A DNA stretch of 64,000 nucleotides from a virus. Its lineage: Duplodnaviria; Caudoviricetes. The stretch lies in IMG/VR virus record IMGVR_UViG_3300035497_000162, positions 32,001 through 96,000 of that record. One strand, 5' to 3'. The position numbers and the translations under genes are program-made. Shown piece after piece: positions 28,353 to 58,942 of this stretch (its first letter is position 1; each line of letters starts with the position of its first letter). A model generated the notes under the pieces. It was not told the origin of the DNA. It made no database searches and saw only the letters and a list, made by a program, of their open reading frames with translations.

Positions 28353-29540
28353 ATGAATTTTAAAGTAAACATAAAAGATTATCAAATTATCAAAAAAGCA
28401 TCTTTAGAGTTTATACCAGGGCTTAATGTAATAGTAGGTCCTAGTAATAATGGAAAATCTAGTATTTTGAAAGCTATAAAAGCTTGTATTTATACTGTAC
28501 CTGGAGCTAATCCTATTAGGGCAGGACAAAATCAATACTTAGTAGGTATAGAATATAATGGTCATACTGTAATATTACAAAAAGGACTTAAAGAGTCCGT
28601 TTATATAGTAGATGGAGAAAAGTATACTAAATATGGAACTACTACTCCAAAGGTTGTATCAGATGCTTTAGGTTTAAAGGAGTTAGTATTAAATAATAAT
28701 AAAGAAATATTAAATTATTGGAATCAGATGGATTATCCTTTTTTAATAGACAGAACTTCAGTGGAGTTATTTAGGTTTATAGTAGACTCTGGAGAAAATG
28801 ATAGAGTATCAGATGCTTTAAAAAGCATGGTATCTGATAGGCAGTCTATTTCAAAAGATATTAATTTAATTCAAGGTGGTATAGATACTGTAGACTTAGA
28901 AATTAAGTCTTATAAGGACAAATTAGATAAATCTAAAGAAATTATTGATACGTGTAATAGTATTATAAAATTACAACCTTTGGTAGCTAAATTAAACTTA
29001 ATGAAAAATATTAAGGAGTCTTGCTCTAAAATATTATCAGATTTATCTAAAACAAATGAAGAATTAGTTAAAAAATCTAATATTTTAGATATTTATACTA
29101 ATTTCAATAAATCTATTACAGGAAATAATAATAAATATTGTGCTTTAGTAGATAAATTTAATATATTACGTTCTATTATAGAAAATTTATCTACTGTAGA
29201 ATCTAAAATTAATTCATTAAAAATTATTTTAAGCTTATCTTCAATAGACACATCAGGATTAAATTTAAGGAAAGAAATTTTAAATAAGATAAATTATATT
29301 AATAATGAATTAAAATCTCTTAAATCTCAACCTAGTGCTAAATTTGATATATCTAATGATACTATTGAAAGGTATTTTAATTTAAAAAATATAAAAGATA
29401 AATTAATAGATTTTGATAATCAAAAAATAAGATTAGAAGATAGTAAATTAAATTGTGATAATAGCATAGAATTATATAAGGAATTAAAATTACTTTTTGA
29501 TTTTTGCCCTTATTGTGGTAGTGGGCTATCAACTACCTAA
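28353..29540 (+). CDS. SbcC/Rad50-like ATPase, N-terminal half
   Basis: GPSNNGKSS, coiled coil, terminal CPYC zinc hook. Confidence 0.85.
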   Translation: MNFKVNIKDYQIIKKASLEFIPGLNVIVGPSNNGKSSILKAIKACIYTVPGANPIRAGQNQYLVGIEYNGHTVILQKGLKESVYIVDGEKYTKYGTTTPKVVSDALGLKELVLNNNKEILNYWNQMDYPFLIDRTSVELFRFIVDSGENDRVSDALKSMVSDRQSISKDINLIQGGIDTVDLEIKSYKDKLDKSKEIIDTCNSIIKLQPLVAKLNLMKNIKESCSKILSDLSKTNEELVKKSNILDIYTNFNKSITGNNNKYCALVDKFNILRSIIENLSTVESKINSLKIILSLSSIDTSGLNLRKEILNKINYINNELKSLKSQPSAKFDISNDTIERYFNLKNIKDKLIDFDNQKIRLEDSKLNCDNSIELYKELKLLFDFCPYCGSGLSTT

Positions 29541-29634
29541 AGGAAAGAACAAAGAATTTAAATCACTAGGGTTTGAATTAAATGAAGTGGTTTATACCTT
29601 GTAATAAAACTATTGCGGTAATGAACTTTATTAA
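29539..29634 (+). mobile_element. collapsed guide cassette 8: cargo-gene remnant, mini scaffold, guide equal to the old sbcC 3' end
   Basis: 29539-29583 resembles the 3' end of gene 57144-57980; GAAGTGGTTTATACCTT-GTAATAAAAC at 29584-29610; then TATTGCGGTAATGAACTTTATTAA. Confidence 0.75.
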
Positions 29635-30612: not shown

Positions 30613-32744
30613 ATGACTTATGAAGAATTAATACAAAAAGAACAAGACCGACAAGATAATAATGTAGAATTAATCGCTAGTGAAAATTTTTGTAGTAAAA
30701 GAATAAGAGAAGCTTGTGGTAGTATATTAACCAATAAGTATTCAGAGCGGTTATCCAGGAAAGAGATATTATGGTGGTTGTAAATATATAGATGAAATAG
30801 AATCTAAGGTAATAGAAGATGCTTGTAAATTATTTAATTGTAAATATGCTAATGTTCAACCTCATTGTGGTAGTTCAGCTAATCAAGCTGTATTTAGAGC
30901 TTTTTTAAATTATGGAGATACTGTACTTAGTATGAATTTAGGAGCTGGAGGTTTGTGTTAGACTGGCTTCCCTAGTATAGTGATATACTAGACAATAACC
31001 CAGAATATGCTGGAATCCCCTGAGAGCTTAAATTAGTAGTTACTATTAGAAATTTTAGTAATATCTGAAAATATTTAAGATTGGGCAATCAGCAGAGATA
31101 GACCTAAGTTCTTTGTGGAATATGGTAAGCTCTCAACGACTATCAATGGGTAACTTTAAAATTAAGGAGGAAATATGTATATTTACTCAATTAGTGATAG
31201 TAGAAATAATATTTATATTGGTAAAACAAGTAATATAAAGAATAGAATTTATACACATAAATCTAAGTCTAAATATAGTAATACAAAGCTATATAGATGG
31301 ATAAGAAATGTAGGTTGGAGCACTTTAAAAGTAACTAAAATTTGTGAGTGTTCAATGGAAGAATCATTTAATTTGGAAATAGAATATATTAAACTCTATG
31401 AAAGTAAAGGATTTAATTTATTAAATGAACAGCATAATAGTCAATATGAACCTGCATTAAATTTTAATAAAAGGATTTTTAATAAAGATGAAATCTGGAA
31501 AGATTATTTAAACGGCAAAGGTAGAGTAGAAATTTGTTTAAGTTATGGAATATCAGATTCTATGTTGTCTAAAATAATTTCAGAAAATGGCGGAATTAAC
31601 AGAATTAGCAAATTAGAGCCATACTTTAAAGAAATACAAGATAGTATAATACAAGGTGTTCCAATTAGGAAACTTGCTAGAAAATATAATGTGTGTAAAA
31701 ATTCAATATCAAATATAAATAAGGGCATAACTGCATATGACCCAAACTTAAATTATCCCTTAAATAAAAGTTAAAGGTATAGTCTGCTCTTATACAAAAG
31801 TATAAGCTAACAAAATGCACTTAACACATGGTCACAAAATGTCATTTAGTGGACAAGATTATAATATTATATCATATGGATTAGATAAAGATGGTATTAT
31901 TAATTATAATGATTTTGTTACTAAATTGTACGAATATAATCCAAAGATAGTAATTATTGGAGCTAGTTCATATTCTAGAATAATAGACTATAAATTCTTT
32001 AAAAATATATTAGATAAATATAAAGAGGATAAAGGAGAATGTCCTATATACTTTGTTGATATGGCTCATGTTGCTGGATTAGTTGCAGCTGGAGTACATC
32101 CTAATCCTTGTGATTATGCTGATGTAGTAACTTCAACTACTCATAAAACCTTGAGAGGACCACGCGGAGGTTTAATTTTAACTAATAATGAAGAATATAT
32201 AAAGAAGATTAATAAAGCTGTATTCCCAGGTATACAAGGAGGTCCACTTGAACATATTATAGCAGCTAAAGGAATTTGTTTTGAAGAAGCAATGACTGAT
32301 TATTTCAAGGAATATGGAAAACAAGTAATTAAAAATGCAAAAGCTTTTTCAGATTCTTTTAAAGAGCTAGGTTGGAAAATAATATCAGGTGGAACAGATA
32401 ATCATATGTTTATATTAGATGTTTATAATTCAACTGAGAGAAAATTAACAGGTAAACAAGCAGAAACAGCTTTAGATGAAATTAATATTACAGTTAATAA
32501 AAATCAAATACCAAATGATTCATTACCACCTTTAAAATCTTCTGGAATAAGAATAGGAACTCCAGCTATGACCACTAAAGGATGGAAAGAAAAAGAATTT
32601 AAAGATTTAGCTATTATTATAGATGAATATTTAAAATATTGTATTAAAGAAGAACTTGTAGATGTAACAATTATAAATAGTTATAAAGAAAAAGTATCTA
32701 GTATAATTAGAAGAGTAAATATGAGAGAGGATAATTGGAATTAG
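30613..32744 (+). CDS. glyA: serine hydroxymethyltransferase; exons 30613-30952 and 31818-32744; +1 shift at CGG 30748
   Basis: [27 protein letters not shown]|[34 protein letters not shown]. Confidence 0.93.
30953..31817 (+). ncRNA. group I intron in glyA
   Basis: Exon ends GGAGGU, pairing with IGS GCUUCC; core ATGCTGGAA, AATCAGCAG, TCAACGACTA, GTATAGTCT; terminal G31817; splicing restores GGHLTHG. Confidence 0.9.
31175..31774 (+). CDS. intron-encoded GIY-YIG homing endonuclease
   Basis: YIYSI...IYIGKT...R...E...N, C-terminal HTH repeats. Confidence 0.85.
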   Translation: MYIYSISDSRNNIYIGKTSNIKNRIYTHKSKSKYSNTKLYRWIRNVGWSTLKVTKICECSMEESFNLEIEYIKLYESKGFNLLNEQHNSQYEPALNFNKRIFNKDEIWKDYLNGKGRVEICLSYGISDSMLSKIISENGGINRISKLEPYFKEIQDSIIQGVPIRKLARKYNVCKNSISNINKGITAYDPNLNYPLNKS

Positions 32745-57143: not shown

Positions 57144-57980
57144 ATGCTTGAAAATAAAAGTAGGAAGATTTTAAAAATAGATAAAACACTACCAACTATA
57201 AAGTTACCAGGTAATAAATTACAAATGTTTATTGACTGGTGGAATGAAGATATAAGGTTTGAAAAATCTATACCTCATTCATTTAATGAAGGGTATTTAG
57301 TAATTAGTGGATTAAATAATAATATAAGTTTATCTAGTAAAGAAACTAAAGAAACTATTAGTATTATAGCTAAATCTATGAAAACTACATACAGATATGT
57401 TGAGAATAAGTTTATTGAATTTTTAGATAATATAAGTAATGTAACTATATATTTTAAATTTTTAGATACTAATAAACTATATTTAGAAAGCTATGATATA
57501 TTAAATACATTAATATCAAAGATGACTATTGAATTTGGTGATAGTAAACAATATGAAGATGAACTACTTTTATTTAAAAACATGAATAATTTTGATGATT
57601 TTCTTAATGTTATTAATAAGTCATTATTAGCATTATTAGCTACAAGTTTATGGTATATATCTACAGCTTCTACTAATACTAAATATATTTACGAAAAGAG
57701 TACTCCACAAATATATAAAGATAAAAATACTGTAAAAGTTAAAGTGAATAAAATAATTAAGAATACTATTTATGACTTTAATAAAATTAGATATATTAAA
57801 GTAGATACTCTTAAAACTAGAAAAAGAGGTTGGACTTATTCACATAGTTTTCAAGTACATGGTCATTATAGACATTATAAGAATGGAAAAACTATATTCA
57901 TAGATTCGTATATTAAGGGAAAGAACAAAGAATTTAAAGCACAGACTTTTGAATTAAATCCAGAAAAGATAAAAGATTAA
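57144..57980 (+). CDS. hypothetical protein directly upstream of cassette 7
   Basis: C-terminal FQVHGHYRHYKNGKTIFI..YIKG motif. Confidence 0.75.
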   Translation: MLENKSRKILKIDKTLPTIKLPGNKLQMFIDWWNEDIRFEKSIPHSFNEGYLVISGLNNNISLSSKETKETISIIAKSMKTTYRYVENKFIEFLDNISNVTIYFKFLDTNKLYLESYDILNTLISKMTIEFGDSKQYEDELLLFKNMNNFDDFLNVINKSLLALLATSLWYISTASTNTKYIYEKSTPQIYKDKNTVKVKVNKIIKNTIYDFNKIRYIKVDTLKTRKRGWTYSHSFQVHGHYRHYKNGKTIFIDSYIKGKNKEFKAQTFELNPEKIKD

Positions 57981-57990
57981 ATATAATATT

Positions 57991-58309
57991 GAGGTAGTTT
58001 ATACCTTTAAAGTACATCGTTACTCATATAGAGTTTAGGTGTAAAGTTATGTTATTTGAAGTTTTATATGTATATAAAATAACATAGTAATAAAACAGGG
58101 CTTCAATTAAAACACTATTTAACGTTTTATATGTATATAAAATAACATAGTAATAAAACACAAAAGCTGCTATAAAGACACTATTTAACGTTTTATATGT
58201 ATACTAAATAACATAGTAATAAAACATTTAGTAAGAGATTTACACTCTTTCTTTTGTTTTACACATATATAAAATAACATAGTAATAAAACAATAGCATA
58301 CAAGTAAGT
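57991..58309 (+). CRISPR. guide cassette 7: scaffold, 4 repeats, 3 spacers, terminal guide
   Basis: Repeats at 58061, 58124, 58190, 58256; spacers of 27, 30 and 30 nt; terminator about 58315-58345. Confidence 0.93.
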
Positions 58310-58426
58310 ATTAGAAAGATAGTCATAAGTTAGCTATCTTTTATTTTTTTCTAATATTTTATATATAATAATAGAGTATTATTTATAGTAATTTATATAT
58401 GCTCTATTAGAGAGGAGGAAATTAAA

Positions 58427-58942
58427 ATGTCAAATACTTATAATGTAAAAATATCTTTTAAGGGAGAAGGAAATCTTTCTTTTGTTTTACCAGGATATGG
58501 TGAATTAACTATTTATAATAAAAAGGATATTTTTGTTAAAGGATTAACTGTAAATGGAGTAGAAGCTTTAAGACAACTTAGACCTTTATTATTAGACCAT
58601 CAATTAAATGCTAAACCAGATGGATGTTACAAAGTAATAGATTTAACTAATACTAATATAATTACACCTAAAGATTATTTTGAGAGATCTTCTAAAGAGC
58701 CTACTAAATCTGTAGCTGAATTAAAAGCTAGTATGATTAAATCAAATGGTCCTATAATAGAAGAAATAGAAGAAACTCAAGAAGAAATAGAAGAAACTCA
58801 AGAAGAAATAGAAGAAATAGAAGAGATAGAAGAAAGTAAAGAAGAAGAAAATATCGAACCTGAAGTAAAAACACCTAAATCAACTAAACCATCTGCTGCT
58901 AAGACTACAGCTAAAAGACAAACTAAAAGAAAAAAACGCTAG
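58427..58942 (+). CDS. hypothetical virion-module protein with EEIEETQ repeats
   Basis: 171 aa; acidic repeat followed by a basic tail. Confidence 0.7.
   Translation: MSNTYNVKISFKGEGNLSFVLPGYGELTIYNKKDIFVKGLTVNGVEALRQLRPLLLDHQLNAKPDGCYKVIDLTNTNIITPKDYFERSSKEPTKSVAELKASMIKSNGPIIEEIEETQEEIEETQEEIEEIEEIEESKEEENIEPEVKTPKSTKPSAAKTTAKRQTKRKKR

Follow-up and report, generated by a model that had tools for sequence, protein, structure and literature searches.

Viruses carry short arrays without cas adaptation genes in the form of virus-borne mini-arrays, solitary repeat units and RNA anti-CRISPRs, which depend on the Cas proteins of their host or inhibit them. Phage TnpB-derived effectors that come with a short array are likewise known already. 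The TranC systems, for instance, are transposon-CRISPR intermediates, some of which are phage-borne and phage-targeting (review PMC13565253). One of them, CauTranC9, was described from a Caudoviricetes genome and consists of a phage TnpB-derived effector with a short array and no adaptation genes (bioRxiv 10.64898/2026.03.27.714800). In the Thermus Lalka phages, the gene for the TnpB-like nuclease Cas12r is followed by a short array, again with no adaptation genes; its repeats mimic those of the host type I-E system, and host-mediated acquisition has been proposed (bioRxiv 10.64898/2026.04.20.719267). A functional analogy comes from the free-standing homing endonucleases of T-even phages, which tell competitor from self by a few substitutions (PMC13565253).

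The phage considered here is represented by an IMG/VR virus record of 119,730 bp (26% G+C, estimated to be 94% complete), which encodes a T4 Gp23-type capsid protein along with T4-like head and tail genes. Positions 32001–96000 of this record, a stretch of 64,000 nucleotides, are referred to as the window in the following. The window contains 12 copies of a CRISPR-like repeat, all on the + strand, and the whole record more than 20. The Cas1 and Cas2 models (PF01867, PF09827) found no match in the 119.7-kb record, their controls having matched, and the Cas9 model (TIGR01865) found none in the phage. Unusual here are the cis scaffold of every array, the approximately ten dispersed cassettes, a junction of type II-A appearance and guides that resemble alleles of related phages.

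These features set the system apart from its closest counterparts to different degrees. With TranC (LaTranC, PDB 9jfo; CauTranC9), it shares a TnpB-sized RuvC nuclease, a short CRISPR array with no adaptation genes nearby, and an ancestral omega/reRNA that appears divided into a tracr-like scaffold and repeat-spacer units. In comparisons with known structures, however, the nuclease matches ISDra2 TnpB at E 1e-32, much more closely than LaTranC, where the match covers the RuvC part only (E 5e-16), and in this T4-like phage a scaffold lies in cis before every array, while the dispersed cassettes include single-guide and tRNA-linked forms. Like Cas12r, the system combines a phage nuclease and a short array without adaptation genes with repeat and spacer sizes that mimic a CRISPR type. 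Cas12r, however, works without a tracr or scout RNA, has 29-bp repeats and one gene-adjacent array, and targets host integrative elements, whereas here we find a tracr-like scaffold, type II-A-like geometry, many arrays and spacers like the alleles of related phages. The nearest sequence family is that of IS200/IS605 TnpB with its omegaRNA (ISDra2), as reflected in the conserved catalytic triad and zinc finger, a scaffold that begins where the gene ends, a guide located 3' of that scaffold and two local targets after a TAM-like CCT; it differs in having one flank-derived guide instead of multiple repeat-spacer units and cassettes far from the gene, and neither tnpA nor transposon ends were noted here. 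In virus mini-arrays, too, the viral genome contains a short array or a solitary repeat but no adaptation genes; here, the phage itself encodes a matching effector and a matching anti-repeat. Lastly, there is a purely functional analogy with intronless homing and localized marker exclusion by Seg and Mob enzymes, in that the guides resemble alleles of conserved genes of which the phage's own allele differs; unlike in those cases, recognition would be RNA-guided and programmable.

A TnpB-family nuclease and dispersed guide cassettes

The phage encodes one TnpB-family nuclease and about ten guide cassettes, all on the + strand and spread over 80 kb, in which a 70-nt structured scaffold is followed by repeats and spacers. 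Apart from the array at 58061–58291, the features discussed in the following are:

8746–8848, + strand: cassette just 5' of the nuclease gene; its scaffold runs straight into the repeat 3' half, after which comes the guide AACGGCTTAAAAGTTTAG..
8882–10126, + strand: sole TnpB-family nuclease gene, 414 aa (Pfam, NCBIfam, structure matches, tblastn)
10137–10280, + strand: collapsed 'single-guide' cassette, beginning 10 nt past the nuclease stop codon
29540–29634, + strand: remnant, in which the 3' end of a gene like ORF 57144–57980 (278 aa, hereafter ORF278) precedes a collapsed scaffold/repeat; the guide that comes next is a variant form of the adjacent gene's end, and that end follows CCT
39855–40026, + strand: cassette; spacer 39961–39990 equals the phage's own 39192–39221 (inside a neighbouring gene) at 28/30 positions, with mismatches at positions 2–3 and CCT 5' of the site
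43668–43773, + strand: scaffold with a solitary repeat, 3 nt 3' of a tRNA
44573–44743, + strand: cassette; the 27-nt spacer 44681–44707 is an in-frame variant of a gene in the related genome G002 (21/27; VIVTVTGSI vs EIVTVAGIT, own allele TTVKVEGIT)
44867–45167, + strand: four-repeat cassette; spacer 45102–45131 equals the phage's own 1969–1998 at 28/30 positions, starting at the G of the start codon of ORF 1967–2257

The nuclease matches the Pfam families HTH_OrfB_IS605, OrfB_IS605 and Cas12f1-like_TNB as well as the NCBIfam model guided_TnpB (207 bits, cut-off 100), and in an alignment with its homologues the RuvC residues D198, E306 and D402 and four zinc-finger cysteines are invariant. Its gene is single-copy in the phage by tblastn and is flanked by guide cassettes on both sides (8746–8848 and 10137–10280). 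The only close homologues, with 54% and 52% identity, are encoded on the metagenome contigs L009 and L010. In this phage and on both contigs, the scaffold starts approximately 10–15 nt past the nuclease stop. In L009, a seven-unit array with a related 36-nt repeat comes next; in L010, the contig ends at the first repeat.

The cassettes vary in their degree of reduction. In three of them, the apical part is absent, and the anti-repeat/scaffold is joined nearly directly to the repeat 3' half and the guide; in three cassettes, the guide has no downstream repeat. The collapsed cassettes resemble natural single-guide RNA. Two leaders begin 3 nt 3' of a tRNA gene, and tRNA processing could therefore release guide RNAs; between 43589 and 44860, guide cassettes and four tRNA genes are interspersed with one another. 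Five arrays, namely the one at 58061–58291 and four others, show a common polarity, with the most degenerate repeats at the leader-distal end.

The array at 58061–58291, which lies 48 kb from the nuclease gene, consists of four 36-nt repeats (GTTTTATATGTATATAAAATAACATAGTAATAAAAC) and three spacers of 27, 30 and 30 nt. Together with its flanks, it is organized as follows:

57982–57987, + strand: TATAAT, a -10-like box just past the stop of ORF278 and 3 nt 5' of the scaffold (sequence reading)
57991–58060, + strand: 70-nt scaffold ('leader') with three predicted stems and a 3' anti-repeat (fold, conservation)
58061–58096, + strand: repeat 1 (R1), 36 nt
58097–58123, + strand: spacer 1 (Sp1), 27 nt, AGGGCTTCAATTAAAACACTATTTAAC, the twin nearer the leader
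58124–58159, + strand: repeat 2 (R2), same sequence as repeat 1
58160–58189, + strand: spacer 2 (Sp2), 30 nt, ACAAAAGCTGCTATAAAGACACTATTTAAC, twin of Sp1 (21/27)
58190–58225, + strand: repeat 3 (R3), carrying the ..TATACTAAAT.. variant that characterizes the arrays at 39925–45101
58226–58255, + strand: spacer 3 (Sp3), 30 nt, without a match
58256–58291, + strand: repeat 4 (R4), leader-distal and most degenerate, with 3 mismatches
58314–58352, + strand: terminator-like hairpin of 10 bp, rich in A+T, with a U-run behind it (fold)

A sigma-70 scan did not call the TATAAT box at 57982–57987, which has no -35 element, and a G+C-dependent terminator scan missed the hairpin at 58314–58352; a TATAAT box in the context TTAAATATAAT-ATT-GAGG is found upstream of 5 of the 10 cassettes. 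The scaffold has a predicted fold of -23.1 kcal/mol (z -3.3 vs shuffles). In the last stem of this fold, its 3' part (GTTATGTTATTT) is predicted to act as the anti-repeat and to pair with the first repeat in the 3' half (AAATAACATAG), at repeat positions ~17–28. It is conserved in 10 copies in the genome and is homologous to the sequence 3' of the TnpB-like gene in L009 and L010. Compensatory exchanges replace UA by CG in stem 2 and CUC/GAG by CUUC/GAAG. In the relative L018, whose capsid protein is 82% identical, a cassette occupies the genomic position that corresponds to the array described here; its anti-repeat TATGACAAA and repeat TTTGTCATA have co-varied relative to TATGTTATTT and AAATAACATA in our phage. 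The scaffold has no matching family in Rfam, and the exact repeat 3' half has no match in IMG/VR beyond its own record. Taken together, the scaffold-repeat pairing, its covariation and the link to the nuclease point to the leader as a presumably transcribed, tracr-like scaffold; judged at the sequence level, the arrays would supply guides to a TnpB-derived, type V-like effector and are not Cas9 arrays.

Twin spacers and the search for their target

The initial annotation had pointed to the interval 58097–58189, which comprises Sp1, repeat 2 and Sp2, and had described two adjacent spacers that share their last 12 nt and differ codon-wise. Both observations hold. The common 3' 12-mer is ACACTATTTAAC; aligned from the 3' end, the twins are identical at 21/27 positions over the whole length of Sp1, and four of their six substitutions fall on third codon positions. 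They are the sole clearly similar pair among the 78 pairs that can be formed from the 13 repeat-bounded spacers of the genome, and for 13 random genomic 30-mers, the probability that some pair has a 12-nt common suffix or 21/27 identity is 6–8e-4. The similarity is thus real and non-random. The proposed anchoring at the 3' end, which the annotation linked to a Cas9 PAM, is not a forced reading, because the twins align equally well when a 3-nt gap is placed behind the common first A, and both ends then coincide. Moreover, no Cas9 was found in the phage, and a TnpB-family effector such as the one it encodes would be expected to use a 5' TAM.

On the + strand, only frame +0 is open in both twins, giving RASIKTLFN and (T)KAAIKTLFN. 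In this frame, the substitutions are found at codon positions 2, 3, 1, 3, 3 and 3; two of the codon differences are synonymous, and the replacements are R/K and S/A. When six substitutions were placed at random in frame +0, an equal BLOSUM score without a stop was obtained in about 0.2% of the trials, a value that rises to about 1% once the choice of frame is allowed for; the statistic is a modest one, as it concerns six substitutions only. The pattern resembles coding divergence, or purifying selection on frame +0, and not drift within the array.

No target for the twins was found. In the phage itself, blastn-short returned a single, non-significant match for Sp1 and Sp2 (19/22 at genome position 39796, E 1.8). 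This best look-alike, with 20/27 identities from window position 7792, lies in frame in the orphan ORF 7669–7977 (GGTSIKIIFN); it is not significant (BLAST E ~2), and no homologue of the ORF was found among 5.8 billion proteins or in the phage relatives. The earlier statement that this window holds no target is thereby borne out. Likewise, the best scores of the twin peptides in a six-frame scan of the phage and its relatives were noise, four related IMG/VR records searched in full (one of them a complete 133-kb genome) contained no match to the twins, a search of the INPHARED phages in distant mode gave only chance matches, and a pattern spanning both twins had 0 matches in IMG/VR. The same pattern matched four times in JGI metagenomes and once in the GTDB genomes, a collection with one genome per species; we rejected these matches as chance, since they agree at the forced positions only and lie in unrelated, G+C-richer contexts. 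For Sp3, there was no protospacer in the phage, the four relatives, INPHARED, IMG/VR, the JGI metagenomes or the GTDB genomes.

Of the sister spacers, the three that could be mapped (39961, 45102 and 44681) are all near-copies of the sense strand of coding sequence. They resemble alleles of phage-family genes and are mismatched to the carrier's own allele, which supports a reading of the guides as aimed at alleles of related phages. Spacers 39961 and 45102 may either act as guides against relatives while avoiding self, or regulate genes of the phage itself. CCT, whose trinucleotide frequency on the + strand is 0.006, directly precedes two local near-targets, a hint that would fit a 5' TAM and type V orientation; the 5' flanks of the mapped near-protospacers differ, however (CCT, CCT, AAT, GGA). 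A second pair of related spacers, at genome positions 26243 and 28957 and with a CCT-flanked site in the relatives G001 and G003, was discarded, as only the first 11–13 nt match.

For the claim that the twins represent variants of one phage gene, the outcome is therefore mixed. Their homology, the coding-like divergence and sister spacers close to variant alleles argue for it, whereas no collection yielded a target; because no protospacer of Sp1 or Sp2 was found in the collections searched, the notion of two alleles of one gene draws on the spacers themselves.

Possible origins of the twin spacers

In our preferred reading, which we give about an even chance, the array is a guide cassette of the TnpB system, and Sp1 and Sp2 are guides against two alleles of a rival's gene that serve in inter-phage competition. 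It is by analogy with the allele-like sister spacers that we read the twins in this way, and the cassettes in general are probably aimed at rival phages. We infer the following course of events, from transcript processing and the use of the scaffold in trans to DNA cleavage, and likewise what the twins target and how spacers are acquired. The array at 58061–58291 would be transcribed from the promoter through the 70-nt cis scaffold and the four repeats and three spacers to the terminator. The scaffold would pair with the repeat 3' half, in cis for the first unit and presumably in trans for the later ones, and the resulting tracr:crRNA-like handle and spacer would guide the single phage TnpB-like nuclease (8882–10126). 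Sp1 and Sp2 would have been copied separately from homologous positions in two alleles, carried by related phages or other mobile elements. In type V orientation, the first 16–20 nt would specify the target and the common 12-mer would lie at the distal end; as the twins differ at six positions within these first 16–20 nt and by a 3-nt offset, both guides together would cover both alleles. The outcome would be exclusion, or an allele-specific 'marker exclusion', in co-infection.

If this is true, the twins preserve a rare sign that a phage renews its guides as a rival's gene diversifies, and they are evidence that such arrays are in use and kept up to date, not fossil. With its small nuclease of 414 aa and its naturally occurring single-guide forms, the system would illustrate, in a present-day phage, how TnpB omegaRNA gave way to tracrRNA and CRISPR array, and would be a testable case of RNA-guided competition among related T4-like phages. 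Possibly, it is also a phage array that borrows the host adaptation module of another CRISPR type: it is conceivable that a type II-A module of the host acquires the phage spacers. A bolder version of the preferred reading, which we regard as speculative and rather improbable, envisages a programmable, RNA-guided form of homing-type warfare with successive twin guides, in which a type II writer, provided by the host and lured by mimicry of its junction, serves a type V-like reader. How much weight the twin spacers can bear hinges on the discovery of their target.

The similarity of the twins could also have arisen within the array, either by duplication of a repeat-spacer unit through unequal recombination or by recombination between strains with allelic spacers, followed by mutation; the common 3' end would then reflect in-array ancestry. 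Several features of the family point in this direction. R1 and R2 are identical, and two repeat variants are combined in mosaic fashion within the array (R1/R2 vs R3). Its leader and R1 are 100% identical to those of the cassette at genome position 11860 over 106 bases, a sign of exchange between cassettes, and the related array in L009 contains exact spacer duplicates, so unit duplication does happen in this phage family. Nevertheless, we consider this origin unlikely. The twins are 22% diverged and differ by 3 nt in length, as opposed to 0/36 differences in the flanking repeats, and drift of non-coding spacers gives no reason for a bias towards third codon positions or for conservative replacements. 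Moreover, the whole phage, including the full array region, is 100% identical in at least two other samples (JGI 3300035495 and 3300043077), and JGI 3300043003 carries part of the array region in identical form; given this identity, no spacer turnover is documented among the samples, a point that also speaks against the preferred reading, as does the distance of 48 kb between array and nuclease gene.

A more radical alternative holds that the repeats are mainly decoys or hijackers of a host type II-A system, acting as RNA anti-CRISPR-like mimics or being read by the host Cas9, that the link to TnpB is secondary, and that the twins result from Cas9-PAM-anchored acquisition. The repeats are indeed 36 nt long and of the form GTTTT..AAAAC, the spacers mostly have 30 nt, the phage has no adaptation genes, and NNAGA follows 2 of the 3 mapped near-protospacers on their 3' side. 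In addition, 6 of the 7 cassettes with a full first repeat have the junction ATTTGAG|GTTTT, identical to that of group-1 type II-A loci, where ATTTGAG forms the leader end and 10 leader nucleotides with one repeat suffice for integration (PMC5382924); the array at 58061–58291 itself has ATTTGAA. The likeness in repeat length, spacer length and leader-end motif is, however, a resemblance only. In type II-A systems, the anti-repeat pairs with the 5' part of the repeat and the crRNA consists of spacer and 5' repeat, whereas here the anti-repeat pairs with the repeat 3' half, which is the type V/TnpB arrangement. Furthermore, the three guide cassettes without a downstream repeat would be useless as Cas9-type crRNA, the scaffold lies directly 3' of a TnpB-like gene in three phages, and the self mismatches of spacer 39961 at positions 2–3 would protect under a 5' seed but not under the 3' seed of Cas9. 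This makes the decoy explanation very unlikely in our eyes.

Least probable of all is a constraint of the system itself, by which the TATTT-N3 at the twins' 3' end would copy the leader end (TATTTGAA/G before R1) and aid integration or folding: the twins do end in TATTTAAC and the leader in TATTTGAA at an equal offset from the repeat GTTTT, UAUUU pairs with the repeat AAAUA in the predicted scaffold fold and Sp3 holds ACACTCTTT near its 3' end, but the similarity of the twins spans all 27 positions instead of being confined to the last 8, TATTT-N3 is absent from the ends of the other ten spacers in the genome, and spacer ends agree with the leader at 7–9/20 positions, which is approximately chance for this composition.

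Genes and junctions around the cassettes

ORF278 (57144–57980) lies between the capsid gene and the array and belongs to no Pfam family. Homologues with 45–48% identity occupy the same place in L012, L014 and L018; a cassette follows the homologue in L018 and is absent in L012 and L014, and the complete relative G002 has neither ORF278 nor the nuclease. A simple homing model in which the guide equals the empty site is not supported for this locus, as the L018 guide is not directed against the cassette-free junction of L012 or L014. The remnant at 29540–29634 includes a fragment like the 3' end of ORF278, and its guide is a variant of the neighbour's C-terminal codons; since it joins a gene end and a cassette, the two seem to have moved together. 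On the short contig L043 (JGI 3300043078, 1765–1885), ORF278 is followed by leader and repeat 1, after which the cassette at genome position 11930 contributes its first spacer. The likeliest cause of this junction is an assembly path that crosses the 106 bases shared by both cassettes, the alternative being a real recombinant between cassettes.

The guide AACGGCTTAAAAGTTT(A/G)G occurs behind a repeat just 5' of the TnpB-like gene at 8819–8836 and twice in the array of L009, at 4431–4448 and 4534–4551. That it is kept in L009 despite a nuclease identity of 54% suggests a fixed regulatory or host target; the conserved guide AACGGCTTAAAAGTTTRG had no match in the phage, its relatives or IMG/VR (0 matches).

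Five of the 13 spacers are T-rich before the repeat (..TTTTTCTAA, ..TTTTTCTAT, ..ATATTTTT, ..TTTTTTG and ..CTTTCTTTT). The gene 3' of the array (58427–58942) contains a tandem Glu-rich repeat at 58756–58855 with 9–21-nt units encoding IEE/TQEE. Elsewhere, two adjacent DNA methyltransferase genes at 2845–4872 and 5028–6215 (C5-cytosine and N6/N4, respectively) likely have anti-restriction or self-marking functions.
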